In this document: in pieces, positions 3,107 through 63,172 of the stretch
Layout: every line of letters begins with the position of its first letter
Position numbering within the stretch: the stretch's first letter is position 1
Notes under the pieces: model-generated
What the model was told of the DNA's origin: nothing
Seen by the model: only the letters and a program-made list of their open reading frames with translations
Database searches by the model: none
From: an uncultured Candidatus Saccharibacteria bacterium
GTDB taxonomy: Bacteria > Patescibacteriota > Minisyncoccia > Phycocordibacterales > PALSA-1337
NCBI GenBank assembly: GCA_964470105.1
Contig: CAYXZI010000004.1
Coordinates: 5,271-69,270, forward strand
Reading direction: 5' to 3'
DNA length: 64,000 nt
Translations under genes and position numbers: made by a program

Positions 3107-4894
3107 TTATTCCTTTCTTCTTGCCTTAGCTCTATCTGTGTCAGTTAGGAATTTCTTTCTCAAGCGTACTGAAAGCGGAGTGATCTCCAGGTATTCATCT
3201 TCGCGCATAGTCTCAAGTCCTCTCTCAACATCTATTTTCCAAGCTGGAGTCAACATGATGTGCTCATCATTTCCTGATGATCGCATGTTAGACATAACCT
3301 TTCCTTTACATGGGTTTACATCCATATCATCTCCCTTTGAAGTATCACCAACAACCATTCCTTCGTAAACCTCTGTAGTTGGTTCAATAAATATACGTCC
3401 TCTCTCTTGTAGATTCCATAGAGCAAACGCCAGAGCCTTTCCTGTCATCATTGATGTCATTGATCCGGTTGAATGCTTCTCAATCTCACCAGCATATGGT
3501 TTGAAGTCAATAAAACGACTAGCTAATATACCTTCACCCTTTGTGTCAATAACGAAAGCATTTCTGTAACCCAAAAGACCACGTGTTGGTATTTCAAATA
3601 GGATTCTACTCAGACCATCTTTTGTCTTCATATCTATCATTGTAGCTTTTCGCTTACCAAGTTTTTCGATGATAGCCCCAGTGAATTCTTCTGGTATATC
3701 AACAGTCAATTCTTCAAAAGGTTCACTCTTTACTCCATCTATATCTTTAACGATAACTTGTGGTTGTGATACTTGTAGTTCATATCCCTCACGTCTCATA
3801 TTTTCTAGTAGAACCGCAATATGTAGTTCACCACGACCGAATACTCTGTAGAATTCATTTGATGAGAAATCAACTCTTAGTCCAACGTTAATTTCCAGTT
3901 CCTTCTCTAGTCTCTCTCGTATTTGTCTACCTGTTACGAATTTTCCTTCACGTCCAGCGAATGGGGAAGAGTTAACAAGGAAGTTTAGGGAGATTGTAGG
4001 TTCGTCAATCTTGATTGCAGGTAGAGCAGGTGTTGCTTCGCTATCAGTTAAAGTCTCACCAATGTATATCTGTGGGAATCCAGCTATAGTTACGATGTCT
4101 CCAGCTGTTGCCTCCTGAATTTCAATTCTTTTCTTTCCTTCAAATGTAAATAGCTTGGTAACACGTCCTTGGTTTACAGTTCCATCAATTTTCTTTTCAA
4201 AAACTGTTTGACCAGTCTTAATTGTTCCATCATAAATACGACCTATAGCTAGTCTACCTAGGAAATTGTCATATCCGAGGTTAAAAGTCTGTACTGTAAG
4301 TGGAGCTGTTGCACTATGATCCTTATTTGCTGGTGGTACATGCTCGAGAATCATATCAAGAAGAGGAGTTAGATCTTTTTTCTCATCTGTGAGTTTTCTC
4401 ATAGCGACTCCTTCACGCCCTATAGCATATATAGTAGGGAAGTCGAGCTGAGCATCATTTGCTCCAAGCTCCATGAATAGCTCTAGAACCATTTCATGAC
4501 AGTGATCAGGATTAGCTGCTGGCTTATCTATCTTGTTGATGATAACTATAGGTTTTAGGCCTAGTTCAAGAGACTTCTTAAGTACGAAACGAGTCTGAGG
4601 CATAGGACCCTCCTGTGCATCAACTACTAGAAGCACCGTGTCGATAGAGCGGAGAACACGCTCTACTTCAGAACCGAAGTCTGCGTGTCCTGGAGTGTCC
4701 ACGATATTGATCTTTGCTCCCTTATATTCAATAGATGTATTCTTGGCATAAATAGTGATACCACGCTCTTGCTCTAGGGCATTAGAGTCCATAGTACCAT
4801 CCTCACCATGGCCACATTGGGTCATTATCGCATCTGTTAGGGTAGTCTTACCGTGGTCTACGTGGGCTATGATTGCTATGTTTCGGATATCCAT
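3107..4894 (-). CDS. typA: Translational GTPase TypA/BipA
   Basis: [15 protein letters not shown] and DTPGHADF G-domain motifs; 595 aa with BipA-like C-terminal domains. Confidence 0.9.
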
Positions 4895-49782: not shown

Positions 49783-51558
49783 TTAAATCAAAATAGCTTT
49801 TATTCTTCTAACACCTTGAGATGAAGCTTCTTCCTTTTGAATTTTAAATACGCCTAGCTCATTAGTATTCTTTACATGTGGACCTCCGCAGAACTCCTTT
49901 GAATATGCTGATTTAAGATCATTACCGATATAGTATATTGAAATTGTATCTCCATACTTTTCACCAAAGAAATGTCTCGCGCCTGTTTTTTCTGCCTCTG
50001 CCTTTGGTAGACTTATATTTTGTACAGGTAGTGCTTGTTTAATCTTCTCATTAACAATATCTTCTACTTTCTTCTTCTCTTCATCTGTCATTTTCTTATC
50101 GTAAGAGAAATCAAAACGTAGTCTCTCTGGAGTTATATTTGAACCCTTCTGACCCACACCCTCTCCAAGAACATCATGTAATGCTTGATGGAGTAGGTGT
50201 GTAGCAGTATGATATCTTACTGACATTTCACTTGTATCAGCAAGACCTCCTTTAAACTTTTGTTCAGCTCCGGAACGGGATAGGTCCTGATGCTTTTTAA
50301 ATTCTTGGTTAAATTTCTCTATATCAACCTTAATTCCCTTTTCCTTTGCAAGCTCTAGAGTCAATTCAAGTGGAAAACCGTAACTTGAAAAAAGTGTAAA
50401 AGCATCTACTCCTTTCTCAAATTCCCTTAATCCCTTTTCTAGAGTTTTTCTGAACTTTTCTTCTTCCTGATTAATTTCATGTTGAATATGATCTAAATTA
50501 GATCCGATGACTGGATATGAATCTCTATACACACCAGCAACGACAACAGCAAGATCCTTCAAACTGTATTCTTTCAATCCTAAATGCTGTGCATTCATAA
50601 TTGCACGCCTCAAAAGACGTCTTAGGATATATCCTCTGTCAGTGTTTGAAGGAAGAACACCATCTGCAATTAAAAAAACAGAGGAACGGATGTGATCAGC
50701 AATTATTCTTGCTGATTTTAGATCCCATTTACTAGATTTACTCTTTATTTCATCCATCAATGGTTTGAGTAGGTCAGTATCGTATATATTATCAACACCT
50801 TGTAAGGTCATAGTGAGTCTTTCTAGCCCTGCTCCGGTATCAACAGATGGTTTTGGTAATTTACCAACTATCTTTCCATCCCTCTTCTCATACTGCATAA
50901 ATACATCATTCCAGACCTCCACCACATGTCTTACATCATCAGCCTTTACATATTCATCATGAGTAAGACCTCTACCGCCATAGGTATTTGATACATCATA
51001 AAACATTTCAGTATCTGGACCGCATGGACCATTATCTCCTGCTTCCCACCAGTTATTCTTTGCGGGTAAATAGAAAATCCTATTACCCTCTATATTATTC
51101 TTCTTAAAAATCTCCTTCCAAATATCCGCAGCTTCCTCATCTCTAGGAGCATTCTCATCACCTTCAAATACAGTTACATATAGGCGTCTAGGATCAAGAC
51201 CGAGTCCTTCAGTTTTTGATGTAAGAAATTCATAACTCCAATTTATTGCATCTGTTTTGAAATAGTCGCCAAGGGACCAGTTACCGAGCATTTCAAAAAA
51301 TGTGGCATGTGTTTTATCCCCAATATCATCAATATCAACAGTACGTAAAACCTTTTGTGAATCAACTAATCTCTTGCCCTTTGGATGTTCTTTTCCGAGA
51401 AGATACGGCACTAGAGGCTGCATGCCTGCGGTATTAAAGAGTGTGGAATTAGTCACACCCTTTTCATCTGGAGTTACTAGAGAAGCAGAAGGGATTATAA
51501 CGTGCCCTCTTTTCTCAAAAAAATTAAGGAATTTACTACGTATTTCACTTGATGTCAT
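49783..51558 (-). CDS. alaS: Alanyl-tRNA synthetase, short form without the C-terminal domain
   Basis: N-terminal class II catalytic core (GMQPLVPYLLG) and editing-domain motifs HTATHLL...CGGPHV. At 591 aa it is about 280 aa shorter than canonical AlaRS. Confidence 0.85.
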   Translation of the reverse strand: MTSSEIRSKFLNFFEKRGHVIIPSASLVTPDEKGVTNSTLFNTAGMQPLVPYLLGKEHPKGKRLVDSQKVLRTVDIDDIGDKTHATFFEMLGNWSLGDYFKTDAINWSYEFLTSKTEGLGLDPRRLYVTVFEGDENAPRDEEAADIWKEIFKKNNIEGNRIFYLPAKNNWWEAGDNGPCGPDTEMFYDVSNTYGGRGLTHDEYVKADDVRHVVEVWNDVFMQYEKRDGKIVGKLPKPSVDTGAGLERLTMTLQGVDNIYDTDLLKPLMDEIKSKSSKWDLKSARIIADHIRSSVFLIADGVLPSNTDRGYILRRLLRRAIMNAQHLGLKEYSLKDLAVVVAGVYRDSYPVIGSNLDHIQHEINQEEEKFRKTLEKGLREFEKGVDAFTLFSSYGFPLELTLELAKEKGIKVDIEKFNQEFKKHQDLSRSGAEQKFKGGLADTSEMSVRYHTATHLLHQALHDVLGEGVGQKGSNITPERLRFDFSYDKKMTDEEKKKVEDIVNEKIKQALPVQNISLPKAEAEKTGARHFFGEKYGDTISIYYIGNDLKSAYSKEFCGGPHVKNTNELGVFKIQKEEASSQGVRRIKAILI

Positions 51559-51865: not shown

Positions 51866-53668
51866 TTATTTGTTTTTCAATATCCACTTCCTGTACTTCT
51901 CTTCCATATCTTCAAAACTCTTTTTATTAGTAGCTACTACTTGCTTACCATGAACTAGCATGATCTTTGCATTTAGTTTTACTGGTTTTGTATACAATGG
52001 TACCTTAGATAACTTTCGGATTCTCTCTTTTGCCACCCTAAGCATTTCATCCATAGATCTAGTGATATTTCTAATGTATGCATCTGGTTTTAATTCTTTT
52101 TTAGTAGCGATTTTTACAAATTCTCTTGTTGTATACAGCGAACCAAGTTCCCAAACCTTAATCATTTCCTTTCCAACCTTTGGGTTATCTACTATATATC
52201 CATACTTATCAAAAAAATATTCTCTCCATTGATTAAGCGCTAATTCAGCTATACCGTAGCCATGATAGTATGCGGAGCTTTCCCAAGTATATATATGTGG
52301 AACATTCAATATTGATATTGAATCCTCTGACCTATCAAAATATTTACGATTCACATCTTTAGCTGTTTCTATGACAAACTCCTTTGTTAGATTTTTACAT
52401 TCATATATCCTTCTTTCAAACTCCATAACAAAATTAATATGCATCATATCCAAACAAATAAGTGGATGTGTTGCCTTTAACTTTCTTTCAAAAAGTTCAA
52501 ATGGATATGCATTACCCTCCTTATCCTTGGCGTACCTCATTTTCCATTCAATACTACTTGAAATTGTATCCATAAATTGACTATGTGTTTCCGCCCACGA
52601 TACAGAAGCTGGAGGATATTCTGTATTCAAACATGAATCTTTTTGAATTGAGTTTAATCTATCTGCAGCATGTCCTGCTTCATGAAAGACAGTATCAATA
52701 CCATCAACACCAGAACCAATTTGTGATGGAATAGCGGTAGAAGTAAATCCAGCAGAGCCAGGAAGAAAATTACCCTTTGTATCATATCTTACAAGTTCTG
52801 GGTAGTGACAGAAACCATTATCCCACTTACCTTTGCGATCAAGAAGATCAAGCTTCAAAGTACCTCCTCTGTACCCTATACCCAAAGCCGAAAAAGATCT
52901 TCCCCAAAGAGATATAACATTTTCAAATTGGAAATACTTATCCTCCTCTTTTGTAAAATCTCCAGTCATCATGTATCCAAAGTTCCATGGCTTTCTTAAT
53001 CCAGGTTTTTCCTTTTCCAATTCTCTAATATTCTTGAAACCGTATTTTGTCTTTTCATATATCAGATCGAAGACTTTAAACAATTCTTCCTTTGTCATTC
53101 CCTCGTCCAGCTTTGCTTTATACGCATAAAAATCCTCAAAACCTAGAATATTTGCATATTGATTTCTTAGCTTAATCACCTCTATATATGTATCAATCGT
53201 ATCAAGAGGAAGTTTCTCTAGAGCATCAAAACACGCTTTTCTGATAGCTTCATCTGGGTTAGTACGCATCAATGTCCTCATCTTGTTTCTAGACGCTTCG
53301 ACAAATATATTAGTATTTGGATCTATATATCCCTCTTTCCTACTACTATGTGCTTTTAAAATCTTTTCTTCTAGAATTGCAATTTGTTTACGAACAGGAA
53401 TCGCTTCATCTGGTGTTTGATACAAGCCAAAAAACTTATCCCATATCTGTAACCTTCTTTTCTCTTCTCCTTTACTCACAAGTATTGCTTTCTCTACTTT
53501 TTCCTTTAGTTTTTTGTTAGAACGAAAGGCATCACGTTTTTCTAGTGCAGCATTCATTTTCTTTCCATCTTTCACAATACCCATATACTTATCCCAAAAG
53601 GCCTTCTCGTAGTTTGAGTGAAGTTTGTTGTGAGTAGAGTTAAGTGAATTAATTAATTTATTCCGCAT
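51866..53668 (-). CDS. M3-family oligoendopeptidase (PepF-like)
   Basis: 600 aa with an HEAGHA zinc-binding HExxH motif in the expected C-terminal half. Confidence 0.6.
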   Translation of the reverse strand: MRNKLINSLNSTHNKLHSNYEKAFWDKYMGIVKDGKKMNAALEKRDAFRSNKKLKEKVEKAILVSKGEEKRRLQIWDKFFGLYQTPDEAIPVRKQIAILEEKILKAHSSRKEGYIDPNTNIFVEASRNKMRTLMRTNPDEAIRKACFDALEKLPLDTIDTYIEVIKLRNQYANILGFEDFYAYKAKLDEGMTKEELFKVFDLIYEKTKYGFKNIRELEKEKPGLRKPWNFGYMMTGDFTKEEDKYFQFENVISLWGRSFSALGIGYRGGTLKLDLLDRKGKWDNGFCHYPELVRYDTKGNFLPGSAGFTSTAIPSQIGSGVDGIDTVFHEAGHAADRLNSIQKDSCLNTEYPPASVSWAETHSQFMDTISSSIEWKMRYAKDKEGNAYPFELFERKLKATHPLICLDMMHINFVMEFERRIYECKNLTKEFVIETAKDVNRKYFDRSEDSISILNVPHIYTWESSAYYHGYGIAELALNQWREYFFDKYGYIVDNPKVGKEMIKVWELGSLYTTREFVKIATKKELKPDAYIRNITRSMDEMLRVAKERIRKLSKVPLYTKPVKLNAKIMLVHGKQVVATNKKSFEDMEEKYRKWILKNK

Positions 53669-54495
53669 ACAGTCTTGATTTCAGCCAGCACCTCGTCCTT
53701 TTCTTTCTGATTCATACCAATCTCATCTAATATCTTTGCATTATTATATATATCAGTACAAAGCACAATGCCCTTCTTTAATAGCTCCTTTTTATGAGAA
53801 TTGGAAAGAGATATTAAACACGTAAATGGATGAAGGTGTAGTTCTTCAATTATATCTTGTAAATTACCTTTATGAGGATAGTTCCAGCCTAGCATTTTAA
53901 TACCGTTGCACTCACCATAGCGTATTGCTTGATCAGTGAACTTTGTATTAGTAATTAACCAACCCTCATCCAGTTTTCTAACTACTCCGCCGTAATTAAA
54001 CATATTTCCCCGTAGATCATCAAATCTAGCTTTTATATATAGCGCTACTTTCAGATCAGATTTCAAAGCGAGCTCATTATGGAACTTAGCTTCAACCATC
54101 ATTAGTTTGTCTTTGTTCCAAGCAACCACATCAACTTCATGTGGCACACAAACACCTAATACAGTCTGATCAGTTAATGTCTCATAGCCCCAAGATTGAA
54201 ATATCTTGGCAACATATTTTTCAAAAGGAAATCCGTCTGGACCAAGTTCGGAGAGTGCTCTACGCAAAGAGTATTTGATAGCGACTGGCATAGAGTGACT
54301 ACGAAGTAGCTTAAATGCCCTTGAATATATTTCACTAGTCGGCATACCATCGTACATTTCCTTGGCTACGTGCTCTATGATGTCATCAATAATTTCATCA
54401 CTACCACCAGCGTTTTTAAGGGAATCAACTAGCTTTTGTTCTTCGAATAGCTCTTTTGTTCCATCGGCTTTAGTTATGGTTATGAGGTGGTTCAT
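53653..54495 (-). CDS. ATP-cone domain protein with a C-terminal Mrr-like restriction-endonuclease fold domain
   Basis: N-terminal ITITKADGTKELFEEQKLVDSL resembles an ATP cone. The central FEKYVAKIFQSWGYETL...DVVAWNKDKLMMVEAKF matches the Mrr_cat pattern (E...GY...D.VA...V.AK). Confidence 0.55.
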   Translation of the reverse strand: MNHLITITKADGTKELFEEQKLVDSLKNAGGSDEIIDDIIEHVAKEMYDGMPTSEIYSRAFKLLRSHSMPVAIKYSLRRALSELGPDGFPFEKYVAKIFQSWGYETLTDQTVLGVCVPHEVDVVAWNKDKLMMVEAKFHNELALKSDLKVALYIKARFDDLRGNMFNYGGVVRKLDEGWLITNTKFTDQAIRYGECNGIKMLGWNYPHKGNLQDIIEELHLHPFTCLISLSNSHKKELLKKGIVLCTDIYNNAKILDEIGMNQKEKDEVLAEIKTVCGIN

Positions 54496-57883: not shown

Positions 57884-59137
57884 CTATATCGGTAGATTTG
57901 AAGGAGCTTCTGATTTCTTTGAAGGTATACGATTTAGACTTGGTGTTGCAGCCACAGCACCAGGTAGGTGGTATATAGTTGCTAATTCTTCTGTGCTCAA
58001 TACAAAGAACTTACTAACGAACGGTTCATAGAAAAATGATCTTCTCTTAAACGCCTCCAAAACTAGTCTAGCCTGCTTGTTCTGTCTATATCCCTTATAG
58101 TCTTCCCATGGATCATTCTTAAATTTTGCTGACCACTTATCACCATTAGGTTTAAAGCCGTTAAAGTTTTCTGTATGGAAATGCTTAAATGAAGAGATAA
58201 TACCACCAATACCATTCGGTTTATCGAAAGAATCCTTTTTAGTAATATATATCGCCCTAACACCCACATCAAAAGCTAGTTTACCCATATTTCTCTCTAT
58301 TGCTTTAATTACCTCCTTTTCTCCATCTGAGAGTGTTGGTGGTATAACTCTTCCTGTTTCTTTATCTTTCTTACCGACAACTTTTGTCTTTGCATCACGC
58401 ACCATGATCTCGTTTATGAGATCAATTGCTTCTTTCTTATACATATCTCCCTTCTTCCATAGATGTTCAGGCATTCTTTGATCCTTTATATGAGCTCGAA
58501 TTATATACTGTATCCAAACCCTCTGATATGGTCCCTGACTACCCAAAAATTCTATGAGTGGTGTCATGGGATCAATCTTAAATTCCTCTTTTGGATCCTT
58601 ATCTAATCCATAATCAATATATGTCTTCAATGGATATGGATCTGCTTTTGTCAGGATAAATTCACCTCCCCACATTTTACTTTCAGCTGGATCAAACTGT
58701 ACACCTAATGTATAGTCTTTTGCTTCGTGAATTTCAATACCTGGGAACTGCGAATAGAATGCAGCCATAACTCCATTCTTTCTTCTGTCTTCTGTTCTTA
58801 TGAAAAACTTTACCACCCCCTCTAAAGAAACTATTTCTAGTGAATATGATGGCCTCTTCTCTCCTTTCCAGTATTGAGCAAAACCGCTACCGTCAGATGT
58901 GTTATGTAGGGAATTTAGAACCAGCTCCATAGCTAGTGGAGACTTTAACATTTCTCTTGGTAGTTTAATTTCTAGCAATGCGTATTTAAGAGAATATATC
59001 CATTCAGAACGTACATAATTTACCCACAATGGCCAGAAGACCATTGATAGTATAAATGCCAAAATAATTGGCGATATTGGCACTACGTAAGTAGTCAGAG
59101 CACTAAATACCTGATCTTGTATCAACGAAAGAATCAT
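57884..59137 (-). CDS. Hypothetical membrane protein
   Basis: 417 aa with an N-terminal TM segment and no recognised domain. Confidence 0.45.
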   Translation of the reverse strand: MILSLIQDQVFSALTTYVVPISPIILAFILSMVFWPLWVNYVRSEWIYSLKYALLEIKLPREMLKSPLAMELVLNSLHNTSDGSGFAQYWKGEKRPSYSLEIVSLEGVVKFFIRTEDRRKNGVMAAFYSQFPGIEIHEAKDYTLGVQFDPAESKMWGGEFILTKADPYPLKTYIDYGLDKDPKEEFKIDPMTPLIEFLGSQGPYQRVWIQYIIRAHIKDQRMPEHLWKKGDMYKKEAIDLINEIMVRDAKTKVVGKKDKETGRVIPPTLSDGEKEVIKAIERNMGKLAFDVGVRAIYITKKDSFDKPNGIGGIISSFKHFHTENFNGFKPNGDKWSAKFKNDPWEDYKGYRQNKQARLVLEAFKRRSFFYEPFVSKFFVLSTEELATIYHLPGAVAATPSLNRIPSKKSEAPSNLPI

Positions 59138-59181: not shown

Positions 59182-60231
59182 CTATGCAGGTAGCTTTGCT
59201 GAATCAGCTATATCGTACTTTCCATCCTTTGTCTTCTTAAAGTTTTTTTGATTTTGTAGATTAACCATTATAGTATTTTCCTTCACATACCTCTCTTTCA
59301 TAACCTTATCAATGATTTCCTCTTTTGTAAGTGGACCATTCTTCTCCAAAATGTTTTTAATAACATCCTTTACAACCCCAGACATATATCCCCATTCTCT
59401 AAGAGCATATAGACCTCTTCCAACTAAAACAAATCTCTTATCCTTTATTAGTTCATTATGTGTAGTTGCAATATGAGCTTTCTTTTTGAAAACTTGAGTA
59501 ATCTGTTTAGCAACTTCTTTAAAGTGTATTGGGGAACCATGCTTTCTGATGACCAAGAATGCATAGTCTCTGACACCCTTTGTCTTTATATTTGAAGAAT
59601 GAGAAACACCCCATTCACCCATAGCGTTCTTTCCGAGTGACTTAGAGATACCTAACCATCTTTTAATGATTTCCTGATTCTTATATTTTTCTGACACTGA
59701 TTCCAAATGAGAAAGGAATCTATTTACGATTTCAGATTCTGGAAGTAGGTCATCGTCTGAAAGACCAGTATATAGTTTTCTTAGAGAGTCTTCTACTTGC
59801 TTAGCCAACTCTTCATTTACATGCCAACGATGCTTAAATTCATCATCCTCCTTCTTCTTTTTGAAACCTTCACCGATAACTAGAATGAAGTGTATATGAT
59901 TCTGCAGTTCTTTATCCTTTGATGCATGACCAAGGAAATCATCCTCGACGACAATTCCACCAAGACTATGTATTAGAGTTTCGATTTCAGCAAAAGCTGT
60001 TTTTTCAGCTTTATATACATCTGACTTTCTGATATTTGTTAGAGCATAGTTTTCTATTTGTCTTACTCGTTCACGAGTAATACCATATAGCTTTCCTATA
60101 GCATCTAGAGTCATTTTATCTGTACTCTTTCCTAGACCGTATCTTTTAATTAGCACCTCACGAGCACGGTCTGGTAAGACTGATAGAAGTCTTTTTGTTG
60201 ATTGTTTTGGTTTGAATTGTATGTTGGCCAT
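59182..60231 (-). CDS. Sigma-70 region-4-like HTH fused to a C-terminal HARE-HTH domain
   Basis: N-terminal REVLIKRYGLGKSTDKMTLDAIGKLYGITRERVRQIENYALTNIRK resembles region 4. C-terminal PIHFKEVAKQI...DKRFVLVGRGLYALREWGY matches the HARE-HTH pattern. Confidence 0.5.
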   Translation of the reverse strand: MANIQFKPKQSTKRLLSVLPDRAREVLIKRYGLGKSTDKMTLDAIGKLYGITRERVRQIENYALTNIRKSDVYKAEKTAFAEIETLIHSLGGIVVEDDFLGHASKDKELQNHIHFILVIGEGFKKKKEDDEFKHRWHVNEELAKQVEDSLRKLYTGLSDDDLLPESEIVNRFLSHLESVSEKYKNQEIIKRWLGISKSLGKNAMGEWGVSHSSNIKTKGVRDYAFLVIRKHGSPIHFKEVAKQITQVFKKKAHIATTHNELIKDKRFVLVGRGLYALREWGYMSGVVKDVIKNILEKNGPLTKEEIIDKVMKERYVKENTIMVNLQNQKNFKKTKDGKYDIADSAKLPA

Positions 60232-60298: not shown

Positions 60299-63172
60299 TT
60301 ATACAACTATATTTACGAGTTTGTTTTTAACAAAAATCACTTTTTTCACCTCCTTTCCATCTATCCATTTCTGTATTTCCTCCATATTTAGAGCCGTATT
60401 CTTCAATTCATCATCCGGTGTATCCCTTTTTACTTTTACCTCCCCTCTCGTCTTACCATTAATCTGAATGAATACTGTCACATTGCTTTCTACCAACCTG
60501 TTTGGATCAAACTTTGGCCATTCTGATTCATGTACTGATCCTTTGTTCTTCATCCTCTCCCATATTTCTTCTGTAAAATGTGGTGCAAACGGAGCAACTA
60601 GTTGAATGATTATCTGATAATATTCTTTAGAAATGCTTTTTTCTTTTTCAAATTCATTCAATAGAATCATTATGGAACTAACAGCGGTATTGAATCTCAT
60701 TTCCTCTATATCCTCACTTACCTTCTTTATCGTCTTATGAACTGAAGTCTCAATACTTTCTCCACCACCCTCCCCAATCTTTTCTTGTAACTTCCATATT
60801 CTTTCAATGAATCTTCTTGAACCTGCAATGGTGTTGGTATCCCATGCTATCGCTTGATCAAATGGACCCATAAACATTTCATGTATTCTAAGTGTATCTG
60901 CTCCAACTGTTTTCACTATATCATCTGGATTAACTACATTTCCTACTGACTTAGACATCTTTGCTCCACCTTCAGCTAGAATTAATCCATGTGATGTTCT
61001 CTTCTTATATGGTTCCTTTGTTGGTACAAGACCCAGGTCATAGAGGAATTTATGCCAGAATCGAGAATATAGGAGGTGTAGGGTGGTATGTTCCATACCT
61101 CCGTTATACCAATCAACTGGAGTCCAGTATTTGAGATTCTTTTGACTAGCAAACTCCTTCTTATTATGTGCATCAACGTAACGTAGATAGTACCAACTAG
61201 ATCCAGCCCAGTTAGGCATAGTGTCGGTTTCTCGCTTTGCTTTACCTTTACAATTTGGACATTTAGTATTCACCCATTTATCTAGAGAAGAAAGTGGTGA
61301 TTCACCTGTTTCAGTTGGTTTATAGTTTTTAACTTTTGGGAGCTTGAGTGGTAATTCTTTTTCAGGCACAGGAACTATCCCACATTTTGGACAATGTACA
61401 ACAGGTATTGGTTCTCCCCAATATCTCTGACGAGAGAATATCCAGTCGCGGAGTTTAAACTTCGTTACCCATTTACCTCCAACAAATTCAGTAATTTCTT
61501 TTTTAACAGATTCAGAGTCTTTACCTGTAAAATTACCGGAGTCTAACAACATACCTTCTCCTGTATATATGTATTCAGGATTAAAGATTATATTCTCAAG
61601 GAATTTTCCTTCAGAGACAGTTAGAAAATCAAATAGTTCCTTCTTGCTTTTCCAAGTTATATCATGCAATGCTCGCTCTTTTTCACTAACCACAGATCTG
61701 TCTTCATTTTCTAAATCAAAAAATACATAGTGGAAATGAGCCCATCGATTCACTTCTTTAATTCGATGAAAGAAAAAAGTATTAATATTAACTGGTGAAG
61801 TTCTAATATATTTAAGATTTTTATAGCCAGTCTCCTCTTCGACTTCTCTTCTAGCTGCCACAACTGGATCCTCACCTTCTTCAATTCCTCCTGTTATTAA
61901 ACCGTTCATCTTTGCAATTTTCCAACTTATACAGAGATACTTATCATCTTTAGGATTACGAACAACTACACAAACCGCTTCTCTTTTAATATACGGCAAA
62001 TCTTTTTTTGGAATTGAATCTGTGGCATCAATAAACTTAGGCTCTAGAACATACTTAACATTTAACTTATATTTCTTCGCAAAGTACCAATCTCTCTCAT
62101 CATGAGCAGGTACGGCCATTACTGCACCAGTTCCATAGTCAGATAGGACATAATCAGCTACCCATACTGGTATCTTTTCTTTGGTTGCAGGGTTTATAGC
62201 CCAGACTCCTTTTACTTCAACTCCAGTCTTTGTATTTTTTGCATCAGTTCTTTCTATTGTAGACTTATCCTTTGCTTGTTTTACATATTTCTTTACTTCA
62301 TCAGCATTATTCAATACTCCTTTATGATTATCGTCTATAGCTAGAGTCACCCAAGGATGCTCTGGAGAAAGTACTATATATGTGACTCCGTATATGGTAT
62401 CAGGTCGTGTAGTGAATGCCGGAATCAATCCTGGTTTCTGACCACCCTCGAACTGAATTTCAAAACTGATTTCTGCCCCCTCACTCTTCCCAATCCAATT
62501 TCTCTGTTGAATCTTTATTTTCTCCAAGAATTCAGTCTCATCCAAATCCTTATCAAGTCTCTCTGCATATTTTGTTATAGCCAACATCCACTGTTCCTTT
62601 TCTCGCTGTTCAACTTTTGTACCACATCTATCACAGCATCCATCTACAACTTCTTCATTAGCTAGACCTATCAAGTCCTTAGGACACCAGTTTATGGTCA
62701 TCTTCTTCTTGTATGCCAATCCTTTCTTTAGGAATTGTAGGAATATCCATTGTGTCCATTTATAGTATTTAGGATCTGTAGTATCTATTTCTCTGTCCCA
62801 GTCAAAAGAGAAACCGAGCATCTTCAATTGCTTTCTAAAGTTATCAGTATTCTGTTTAGTAACTATAGCTGGTTGTATACCCGTCTTGATAGCATAGTTC
62901 TCTGTAGGTAGACCAAATGCATCCCAACCTATTGGATACAGTACATTGTATCCCTCTCTTCTTCTCTTACGAGAAATGATGTCCATAGCAGTATTACTTC
63001 TAATGTGGCCTACATGCATACCAGCTCCAGATGGATATGGGAATTCTATGAGAGCATAGAACTTTTTCTTATTTAAATCCTCCTTCACCTTATTAGGCTT
63101 TTTCTTCTCCCAAACCTTCTGCCACTTCTTTTCTATTTTAATATGATCATACTGTTCCATAAAATGTATCAT
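60299..63172 (-). CDS. leuS: Leucyl-tRNA synthetase carrying an embedded Nudix hydrolase domain
   Basis: HIGH (HVGHIRSN) and KMSKS motifs, a TRPDT editing-domain motif, and the zinc knuckle CPKCG. About 100 aa longer than typical LeuRS, due to a roughly 135-aa insertion at residues 395-530. Confidence 0.9.
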   Translation of the reverse strand: MIHFMEQYDHIKIEKKWQKVWEKKKPNKVKEDLNKKKFYALIEFPYPSGAGMHVGHIRSNTAMDIISRKRRREGYNVLYPIGWDAFGLPTENYAIKTGIQPAIVTKQNTDNFRKQLKMLGFSFDWDREIDTTDPKYYKWTQWIFLQFLKKGLAYKKKMTINWCPKDLIGLANEEVVDGCCDRCGTKVEQREKEQWMLAITKYAERLDKDLDETEFLEKIKIQQRNWIGKSEGAEISFEIQFEGGQKPGLIPAFTTRPDTIYGVTYIVLSPEHPWVTLAIDDNHKGVLNNADEVKKYVKQAKDKSTIERTDAKNTKTGVEVKGVWAINPATKEKIPVWVADYVLSDYGTGAVMAVPAHDERDWYFAKKYKLNVKYVLEPKFIDATDSIPKKDLPYIKREAVCVVVRNPKDDKYLCISWKIAKMNGLITGGIEEGEDPVVAARREVEEETGYKNLKYIRTSPVNINTFFFHRIKEVNRWAHFHYVFFDLENEDRSVVSEKERALHDITWKSKKELFDFLTVSEGKFLENIIFNPEYIYTGEGMLLDSGNFTGKDSESVKKEITEFVGGKWVTKFKLRDWIFSRQRYWGEPIPVVHCPKCGIVPVPEKELPLKLPKVKNYKPTETGESPLSSLDKWVNTKCPNCKGKAKRETDTMPNWAGSSWYYLRYVDAHNKKEFASQKNLKYWTPVDWYNGGMEHTTLHLLYSRFWHKFLYDLGLVPTKEPYKKRTSHGLILAEGGAKMSKSVGNVVNPDDIVKTVGADTLRIHEMFMGPFDQAIAWDTNTIAGSRRFIERIWKLQEKIGEGGGESIETSVHKTIKKVSEDIEEMRFNTAVSSIMILLNEFEKEKSISKEYYQIIIQLVAPFAPHFTEEIWERMKNKGSVHESEWPKFDPNRLVESNVTVFIQINGKTRGEVKVKRDTPDDELKNTALNMEEIQKWIDGKEVKKVIFVKNKLVNIVV
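61583..61990 (-). other. Nudix hydrolase domain inserted in LeuRS between the CP1 editing domain and the catalytic-core return
   Basis: Canonical Nudix box GGIEEGEDPVVAARREVEEETGY (G-x5-E-x7-REUxEExGU), encoded at 61823-61891. The position corresponds to the short E. coli linker after KYGLNIKPV. Confidence 0.75.

Follow-up and report, generated by a model that had tools for sequence, protein, structure and literature searches.

Few enzymes have been studied as thoroughly as the aminoacyl-tRNA synthetases (aaRSs), and work on their accessory domains has time and again uncovered new biology, e.g., editing, signalling and the production of diadenosine tetraphosphate (Ap4A). The closest described relatives of the protein discussed here are the canonical leucyl-tRNA synthetases (LeuRS) of Thermus thermophilus (1H3N, 2BYT) and Escherichia coli (4AQ7, 4ARC), with which it shares the family, the order of domains, a Rossmann core and the HIGH, KMSKS and CP1 (connective polypeptide 1) motifs. 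It is encoded by leuS in a 64,000-nucleotide stretch of DNA from an uncultured Candidatus Saccharibacteria bacterium (assembly GCA_964470105.1, contig CAYXZI010000004.1, positions 5,271 to 69,270), which as a whole is termed the window. Two differences set the window LeuRS apart from the canonical enzymes: a Nudix domain of 155 aa stands in place of a 10-residue loop of CP1, and the leucine-specific domain is present only in the canonical LeuRS. We favour, with moderate confidence, the view that the inserted domain is a module of a distinct Nudix subfamily placed in a CP1 loop, that it is most likely an active hydrolase, and that it works in connection with the aminoacylation machinery or with tRNA.

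The leuS open reading frame (ORF; 60299-63172, minus strand, as are all features of this gene given below) encodes 957 aa followed by a stop codon and specifies a LeuRS of bacterial type that carries the Nudix insert. It scores 982.2 bits against the NCBIfam equivalog TIGR00396 leuS_bact (cut-off 548.4), has Pfam matches to tRNA-synt_1, tRNA-synt_1_2 and Anticodon_1, and was matched by phmmer to the LeuRS of T. thermophilus with E=6e-214 and to that of E. coli with about 1e-189. The class-I and the CP1 editing signatures are all intact. The HIGH signature of the synthetic active site (HVGH, aa 53-56; 63005-63016), read from the sequence, is invariant in our LeuRS alignment A1; the T-rich motif TTRPDT (aa 254-259; 62396-62413), the GTG...HDxRD editing motif GTGAVMAVPAHDERD (aa 347-361; 62090-62134) and KMSKS (aa 738-742; 60947-60961) were likewise located in the sequence. 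The enzyme presumably still charges and proofreads tRNA-Leu, as its motifs suggest. In the alignment with T. thermophilus LeuRS, residues 5-377 correspond to 1-363, residues 533-736 to 374-582 and residues 736-957 to 635-876; residue 736 thus aligns to both 582 and 635, and the leucine-specific domain (T. thermophilus 583-634) has no counterpart. This domain is not universal in LeuRS, and its absence is a lineage trait that is no bar to membership in the bacterial LeuRS family.

The Nudix insert comprises aa 378-532 (155 aa; 61577-62041) and takes the place of T. thermophilus residues 364-373 in the alignment. The initial annotation had described a complete Nudix domain with an intact box embedded in LeuRS, at a point where the canonical enzyme has only a short loop, and in both respects it was right. 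It had also estimated the insert at about 135 aa (its coordinates correspond to aa 395-530) and placed it after CP1 and before the catalytic core, which has to be corrected, since the insert lies within CP1. The first part of the editing domain (aa 229-377; 62042-62488) is matched by PF13603 at aa 224-382, over profile positions 1-146 of 185. There the profile is cut by the NUDIX match. Past the insert comes the second part of CP1 (aa 533-575, YTGEGMLLDSGNFTG...KFKLR; 61448-61576), which aligns to T. thermophilus LeuRS from residue 374 and is conserved both in alignment A1 and in the mini-CP1 proteins described below. The second half of the catalytic core, the anticodon-binding domain and the C-terminal domain follow (60302-61447, delimited by Pfam and by the T. 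thermophilus alignment). The loop at the insertion point has 3-11 residues in close insert-less relatives and about 10 in L035 and L037, the N-terminal part of which is 69-71% identical to the window LeuRS (numbers with L and P denote loci and proteins collected in this work).

Within the insert, the N-terminal linker (aa 378-396, PKFIDATDSIPKKDLPYIK; 61985-62041) is homologous to the N-terminal extension of stand-alone Nudix relatives; the stand-alone proteins P0003-P0005 align from insert residue 1 and share with it the motif P-x-F...P-(F/Y)-(V/I)-x-R-E. The Nudix fold proper (aa 397-518; 61619-61984) is matched by Pfam PF00293 with E=1.5e-13 and 51.3 bits (gathering score 21.1) over profile positions 3-124 of 134, and the insert has the alpha/beta/alpha sandwich of Nudix proteins. 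The Nudix box GGIEEGEDPVVAARREVEEETGY (aa 428-450; 61823-61891), with the metal-binding residues E443, E446 and E447, was inspected again and agrees with GX5EX7REUXEEXGU at all specified positions, the final hydrophobic residue being Y. The strict form of this pattern occurs once in the six-frame ORFs of the window and in none of 200 shuffles. The box is followed by the X-loop and subfamily signature (aa 465-476, TFFFHRIKEVNR; 61745-61780), in which the residues at +17/+18 from the box are aromatic and K472, N475 and R476 are nearly invariant, and then by the C-terminal helices and return linker (aa 519-532; 61577-61618), in which AlphaFold2 places helices at 520-523 and 525-530; the T. thermophilus alignment resumes at aa 533. 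As we envisage it, a whole gene-sized Nudix module of about 155 aa, including the N-terminal extension of the stand-alone proteins, would have been inserted into a short surface loop of CP1, where it folds as an independent globular domain held by two linkers. The LeuRS that retained HIGH, KMSKS and the editing motifs would thereby have acquired a third catalytic site.

A metagenomic misjoin of leuS with a separate nudix gene, a danger which the initial annotation had pointed out, is a priori possible for any metagenome-assembled sequence, and the DNA of the insert has a GC content of 0.33, slightly below the 0.36-0.41 of its flanks. Against it speak the junctions themselves, as the reading frame runs through from either flank into the insert and CP1 picks up exactly at the break point. 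The exact window protein is also on record at NCBI (P0156), in a 90%-identity cluster of 4 members, and an ortholog from a different species-level genome (L003) is 92% identical and contiguous across both insert junctions. A narrow peptide-pattern scan of GTDB species genomes yielded 37 loci, about 30 of which, independent assemblies from different studies, encode LeuRS and the insert in one frame; in L001 the gene order leuS, sigma70_r4, DUF8128, YceG is that of the window, with the same insert at 64-67% identity. Finally, PF00293 is present in about 100 of the 120 full-length LeuRS homologs that scored best (54-75% identity). We thus regard the fusion as authentic and the probability of a misjoin as negligible. 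The LeuRS of L001 and L002 is fragmented, and split genes were considered and rejected: the pieces shift reading frame, a frameshift pattern and not one of in-frame recoded stops, so that both loci were treated as error-prone assemblies. In L001 the neighbouring genes, e.g., a transpeptidase, are fragmented likewise. In a Patescibacteria contig (L026, 158-6336) the leuS region is duplicated in inverted orientation, with matches to the same segments on either strand; this is probably an assembly artefact of that record.

The distribution of the insert was established by an exhaustive HMMER search of 1.84 billion cluster representatives, in which 370 representatives reached E<=1e-3, 181 of them with E<=1e-10. 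Of the best 150 of these 370, about two thirds are LeuRS, whole or fragmentary, with the Nudix domain at the same point, and at least about 100 clusters at 50% identity bear a LeuRS-embedded Nudix domain. An impression of rarity, left by a word-index search with the insert alone that returned 8 proteins, was dismissed after the exhaustive search exposed the low sensitivity of the former. The survey of LeuRS orthologs that the initial annotation had proposed thus shows the insert to be the majority architecture among the Patescibacteria relatives of the window LeuRS. The named carriers are Patescibacteria, i.e., Nomurabacteria, Taylorbacteria, Kaiserbacteria, Zambryskibacteria, Wolfebacteria, Gribaldobacteria, Falkowbacteria and Paceibacteria/Paceibacterota; some automated labels (Saccharibacteria, Bacillota, Gammaproteobacteria) probably stem from mislabelled metagenome-assembled genomes. 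In databases the carriers bear only the names 'leucine--tRNA ligase' or 'class I tRNA ligase family protein', as does the Nudix-bearing LeuRS of a Nomurabacteria genome (UniProt A0A0G0QTG5, GenBank KKR43508.1), publicly named 'Leucine--tRNA ligase'. In the searchable full-text literature, i.e., other than subscription-only papers, nothing was found that describes this architecture, whether for LeuRS, for prolyl-tRNA synthetase (ProRS) or for aaRSs in general, in line with the earlier suspicion that the architecture is undescribed. A term search of a comprehensive 2017 survey of the Nudix clan met neither 'tRNA' nor 'synthetase', and no curated model of a LeuRS with Nudix surfaced in the NCBIfam match list of the window LeuRS. 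Since the architecture is visible in the automated Pfam annotation of public sequences, which have been available for years under generic names, it seems to be unreported rather than unseen.

The window insert position is not the only one that the subfamily occupies in LeuRS. When 244 copies in 218 LeuRS were mapped by anchor segments, 177 copies and 38 probable ones were assigned to the position of the window insert (site B), 23 to a hairpin loop where CP1 begins, near aa 242 (site A) and 4 to aa 637-650, approximately (site C). Some LeuRS possess two or three copies, with three in P0009 and P0010. The strict box is intact in 85% of the 177 site B copies, in 48% of those at site A and in 0% at site C, while the variants retain E-x2-EE. 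Site A also holds tandem pairs, in which a canonical copy is accompanied by a variant 'GQTPEEAARAE..EETGY' copy that keeps E-x2-EE.

Conservation was assessed over 163 domain copies from clusters at most 50% identical, 115 of them LeuRS-embedded and 48 not. In the embedded copies the box is close to invariant (G428 98%, G429 96%, E443 99%, E446 97%, E447 100%, G449 98%, Y450 90%), with R442 at 79% and E434 at 76% (Q 13%). Conservation extends to residues that are characteristic of the subfamily (R397 93%, K472 98%, N475 97%, R476 87%, L487 96%, E499 84%, W507 95%), and embedded and stand-alone copies have one common residue signature. With regard to L003, the ratio of nonsynonymous to synonymous divergence (dN/dS) amounts to 0.11 in the insert and to 0.04 in the LeuRS core; the insert is thus constrained, as judged by substitution patterns, and less strongly than the synthetase core. 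Because a complete metal-binding box is maintained under purifying selection, the Nudix domain is most likely an active Mg2+-dependent hydrolase, which would act as a pyrophosphohydrolase. In the same comparison with L003 the synonymous divergence is about three-fold lower in the insert (61577-62041) than in the flanking core (dS 0.34 vs. 1.08, with third-codon-position differences of 10-18% vs. 28-56%). Possible explanations are a recent recombination of the segment, a stronger bias to A/T at third positions or a constraint at the nucleotide level.

It may be argued that the domain does not hydrolyse anything and serves as a structural, dimerising, ligand-sensing or RNA-binding module that modulates LeuRS. 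Known non-catalytic Nudix domains have degenerate boxes, whereas the window copy has every box residue, the three metal-binding glutamates are conserved at 97-100% in embedded copies and even the variants keep E-x2-EE. What speaks for such a role is that the RNA-binding or regulatory Nudix folds mL46, NrtR and AraR are among the structural neighbours of the insert, that the extra copies at sites A and C often depart from the strict box, and that the tandem pairs of canonical and variant copies are suggestive of a pseudo-dimer. Examples of non-hydrolytic Nudix folds do exist, e.g., CFIm25 (PMC2425470), mitoribosomal mL46 and NrtR. Taken together, we hold a non-catalytic module to be improbable as a general explanation; for the window copy such a role is unlikely, and for the degenerate copies at sites A and C it is plausible, given their altered boxes.

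The same Nudix subfamily was found beyond LeuRS. P0148 (L066, 2906-4837) is an intact class-II ProRS with the Nudix domain between its anticodon-binding and C-terminal domains. It belongs to a clade of five clusters of 641-674 aa (P0148, P0285-P0288), which nests among insert-less ProRS of about 485 aa; the named ones of the latter come from Nanoarchaeota and Woesearchaeota, members of the DPANN archaea. A further group consists of proteins of about 280 aa (P0051, P0060, P0068, P0080, P0120, P0139 and the longer P0062; e.g., L064 3078-3923 and L065 322-1167), that match LeuRS CP1 from boundary to boundary and contain the Nudix domain in the same loop as LeuRS does. These are termed mini-CP1 here. 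Two bacterial contigs contain P0060 as a complete gene, away from any pieces of LeuRS; it adjoins genes of an integrase, SecG and RNase R. ProRS has a free-standing counterpart as well: P0086 (251 aa; L067 197-952) aligns to P0148 residues 295-525, i.e., to the ProRS anticodon-binding domain plus Nudix, with 39% identity and E=8e-53. P0086 and P0121 (L068 4001-4699, in a context of archaeal type) are free-standing genes and, with P0109 and P0137, belong to the free-standing proteins of 230-300 aa that contain this subfamily. Plain stand-alone members have 155-190 aa and are 40-45% identical to the insert, with which they share even the N-terminal extension, the part that in LeuRS became the linker. 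A viral origin of the mini-CP1 and ProRS fusions was considered and abandoned, as scans of viral contigs returned generic Nudix-box matches or nothing.

Every copy that is not stand-alone resides in LeuRS, ProRS, mini-CP1 or a ProRS anticodon-binding domain; no non-aaRS host was found among the 403 collected proteins. Since the subfamily has been found embedded only in aaRSs or aaRS-derived modules, in two synthetase classes and two domains of life, we infer a function in connection with aminoacylation or tRNA, beyond mere general house-cleaning. As substrates we consider dinucleoside polyphosphates most likely, such as the synthetase by-product Ap4A, or else groups with a pyrophosphate at the end of an RNA or tRNA.

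What can be said about the substrate class comes from profile models, from structural neighbours and from the X-loop. Curated Nudix subfamilies (RppH, MutT, NudE, NudI, YtkD, ADP-ribose pyrophosphatase) were all rejected, every score being far below its cut-off. The best NCBIfam Nudix models, those of RppH/NudH (NF001936 and NF001938), gave 27.2 bits (cut-off 118) and 26.6 bits (cut-off 116), MutT 8-oxo-dGTPase (NF008044) 18 bits against 148, and ADP-ribose pyrophosphatase (TIGR00052) 19 bits against 79.55. An assignment by fold search was also given up, since the neighbours are too evenly spread to provide more than a lean. In hydrolases of dinucleoside polyphosphates (ApnA) a Tyr is said to lie 16-18 residues from the box, and in ADP-ribose hydrolases a Pro at +15/16. 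The X-loop downstream of the Nudix box is described as a marker region of substrate class, and the markers of Dunn et al. (1999) are summarised as Tyr for ApnA, Pro for ADP-ribose and SQPWPFPxS for NADH (PMC5389931). At position 468 (+18) the embedded copies have Y in 52% and F in 40% of cases and the stand-alone ones have Y in 64%, and position 467 is F or Y, which makes the ApnA marker ambiguous. The Pro marker is not found in the window protein, where 465 is T and 466 is F, nor is Pro dominant in these two columns; the NADH pyrophosphatase (NudC) motif SQPWPFPxS is absent from aa 451-480 (KNLKYIRTSPVNINTFFFHRIKEVNRWAHF). On the strength of the structural neighbours and of the aromatic X-loop residue, dinucleoside polyphosphates (e.g., Ap4A) or pyrophosphates at RNA or tRNA ends are favoured as substrates, with low confidence. 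Ap4A is a side product of the aaRS reaction. The initial annotation had proposed Ap4A, mischarged adenylates or a nucleotide cap. Aminoacyl-adenylates are not typical Nudix substrates, as they have one phosphate only.

There is another possibility, namely that an active house-cleaning or salvage Nudix enzyme resides in a permissive loop of LeuRS with no link to aminoacylation or tRNA, and is retained because fusion to an essential, constitutively expressed gene secures its expression in a minimal genome. Several observations fit it and weigh against a function tied to aminoacylation or tRNA. Other hydrolase domains occur alongside Nudix in the same set of LeuRS loops of relatives, with LeuRS lengths of 1120-1336 aa: an alpha/beta-hydrolase (Ser_hydrolase/Abhydrolase) at site A in P0169 (aa 246-402) and P0229 (aa 441-598) and also in the LeuRS of P0180, P0187, P0197, P0256 and others, HAD_2 at site C in P0176 (aa 650-804) with HAD also in P0189, P0208 and P0061, and in P0230 a site A stretch of about 220 aa, labelled Ham1 by precomputed Pfam and unconfirmed at E<=1e-4. 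In this clade LeuRS seems to accommodate hydrolases at several sites, and these extra domains fit a LeuRS that is merely a permissive host. The Nudix domain is also missing from close relatives: P0210 and P0217 (766 aa), the most similar cores in alignment A1 (80% identical), have none, nor have L035 and L037; P0235 and P0268 (795-798 aa) are further LeuRS of this kind. As the closest LeuRS relatives do without the insert, it is shown, as far as sequence can tell, to be dispensable for LeuRS and for charging. P0210 and P0217 also lack CP1 aa 530-556, so that by alignment they seem to have undergone a recent deletion that ran beyond the end of the insert. Between more distant relatives the insert changes faster than the core (mean identity 48% vs. 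69%).

The gene neighbourhoods of stand-alone homologs are varied and not centred on aaRSs: P0007 has ProRS two genes away, P0004 and P0005 have no aaRS neighbour, and no consistent aaRS neighbourhood was seen in the contexts examined. In L038 (3505-6873) a stand-alone member (170 aa, 3944-4456, plus strand) lies about 300 nt upstream of a same-strand 705-aa ValRS-like class-I gene; a second Nudix gene there (3505-4026, opposite strand) is unrelated to the subfamily. To the points that count against an aaRS- or tRNA-linked function belong also the mini-CP1 proteins, in which about 50 CP1 residues are gone. Since the T-rich and GTG editing motifs are lost in them, these CP1 partners may be scaffolds and not binders of tRNA ends. 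The X-loop of the window protein (F466-F468) has Phe at +16 to +18 and not the ApnA marker Tyr, and our survey could have missed hosts among the subfamily representatives ranked below the best 150 of 370.

Other observations tell against a plain passenger. The subfamily was captured independently by the class-II ProRS of DPANN archaea, it occupies three different LeuRS sites, its free-standing versions keep a module of aaRS origin, either mini-CP1 or the ProRS anticodon-binding domain, where a bare Nudix domain might be expected, and the 403 collected proteins offer no host other than aaRSs and modules derived from them. Residence in a permissive loop with no link to aminoacylation or tRNA is a possibility to be taken seriously, but in our judgement a doubtful one.

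The function linked to aminoacylation or tRNA, which we prefer, can be put in a more specific form: the Nudix domain would be a third active site from a previously unrecognised, translation-dedicated subfamily, common to bacteria of the candidate phyla radiation (CPR) and DPANN archaea, that acts on a synthetase-made or tRNA-attached substrate. The domain might then destroy Ap4A or related by-products at the source, or it might free a tRNA end of a block or cap that contains a pyrophosphate, e.g., a 5'-triphosphate, a 5' cap, a 3'-pyrophosphorylated CCA end or an ADP-ribosyl adduct, and the co-embedded alpha/beta-hydrolase and HAD domains could be further tools of the same kit. A mechanism that depends on the synthetic active site is made less likely by the free-standing Nudix fusions, none of which has an adenylate-forming domain. 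They speak mildly for a role linked to tRNA or for dependence on the scaffold; given the degenerate editing motifs of mini-CP1, both of these are possible. In this full form we consider the third-active-site proposal tentative and rather unlikely.

The surroundings of leuS in the window contain a few features of their own. Directly downstream, on the same minus strand, is a gene for a 349-aa protein with Sigma70_r4 and HARE-HTH domains (59182-60231), followed by a gene for a 417-aa protein (57884-59137, minus strand) that has no Pfam match and the syntenic counterpart of which in L001 is annotated DUF8128; YceG and MnmA come next. Upstream of leuS, the segment 63250-63700 has a GC content of 0.41-0.44, compared with about 0.35 nearby, and holds no long ORF. 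No Rfam family matches it at gathering score, and the sole Rfam match in the window is a tRNA at 1235-1305. An alanyl-tRNA synthetase of 591 aa (49783-51558, minus strand), with the catalytic domain and tRNA_SAD, is much shorter than typical bacterial AlaRS and may be another remodelled synthetase of this genome. In a 280-aa protein (53653-54495, minus strand) an ATP-cone is unusually paired with the catalytic domain of an Mrr-type restriction endonuclease.

An apparently active pyrophosphatase within the LeuRS editing domain, spread across a large uncultivated bacterial radiation and present also in ProRS of ultra-small archaea, is a pattern that suggests that organisms with minimal genomes and a host-dependent nucleotide supply couple a so far unrecognised activity to aminoacylation or tRNA. 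If the third-active-site proposal were true, aaRSs would possess an inbuilt quality control or repair of a new kind. If the domain is instead a passenger, the CP1 loops would be unusually permissive for the insertion of whole enzymes, which would be useful for protein engineering. Natural pairs with and without the insert, e.g., the window LeuRS and L037 or P0217, are ready-made controls.

How does this architecture relate to systems that are already known? AlaX and YbaK/ProX are free-standing trans-editing proteins homologous to aaRS editing domains. Like these, mini-CP1 with Nudix is an autonomous gene derived from an aaRS editing domain; unlike AlaX and YbaK/ProX it comes from LeuRS CP1, has lost the editing motifs and has Nudix in a CP1 loop. 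To our knowledge, no free-standing CP1 homologs have been described. For an aaRS with an added enzyme, a precedent is NCBIfam NF040702, 'isoleucine--tRNA ligase, N-acetyltransferase domain-containing', where a class-Ia aaRS with an unrelated catalytic domain is curated as a distinct architecture; the domain added there is a GNAT acetyltransferase, and in the window LeuRS it is Nudix. An aaRS with an accessory domain is thus already known in kind, and it is the Nudix hydrolase as accessory domain that seems to be new. As for the insert itself, its best characterised structural and profile neighbours are the Ap4A/Ap6A hydrolases (Ndx1, Rv2985, CT771), RppH/NudH and the decapping effector AvrM14. 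The ApnA hydrolases have an X-loop Tyr where the insert subfamily has an aromatic residue at +17/+18; the insert is only 15-24% identical to these enzymes, and differs from them by its own invariants (R397, K472-x2-N475-R476, W507) and by its place inside a synthetase.

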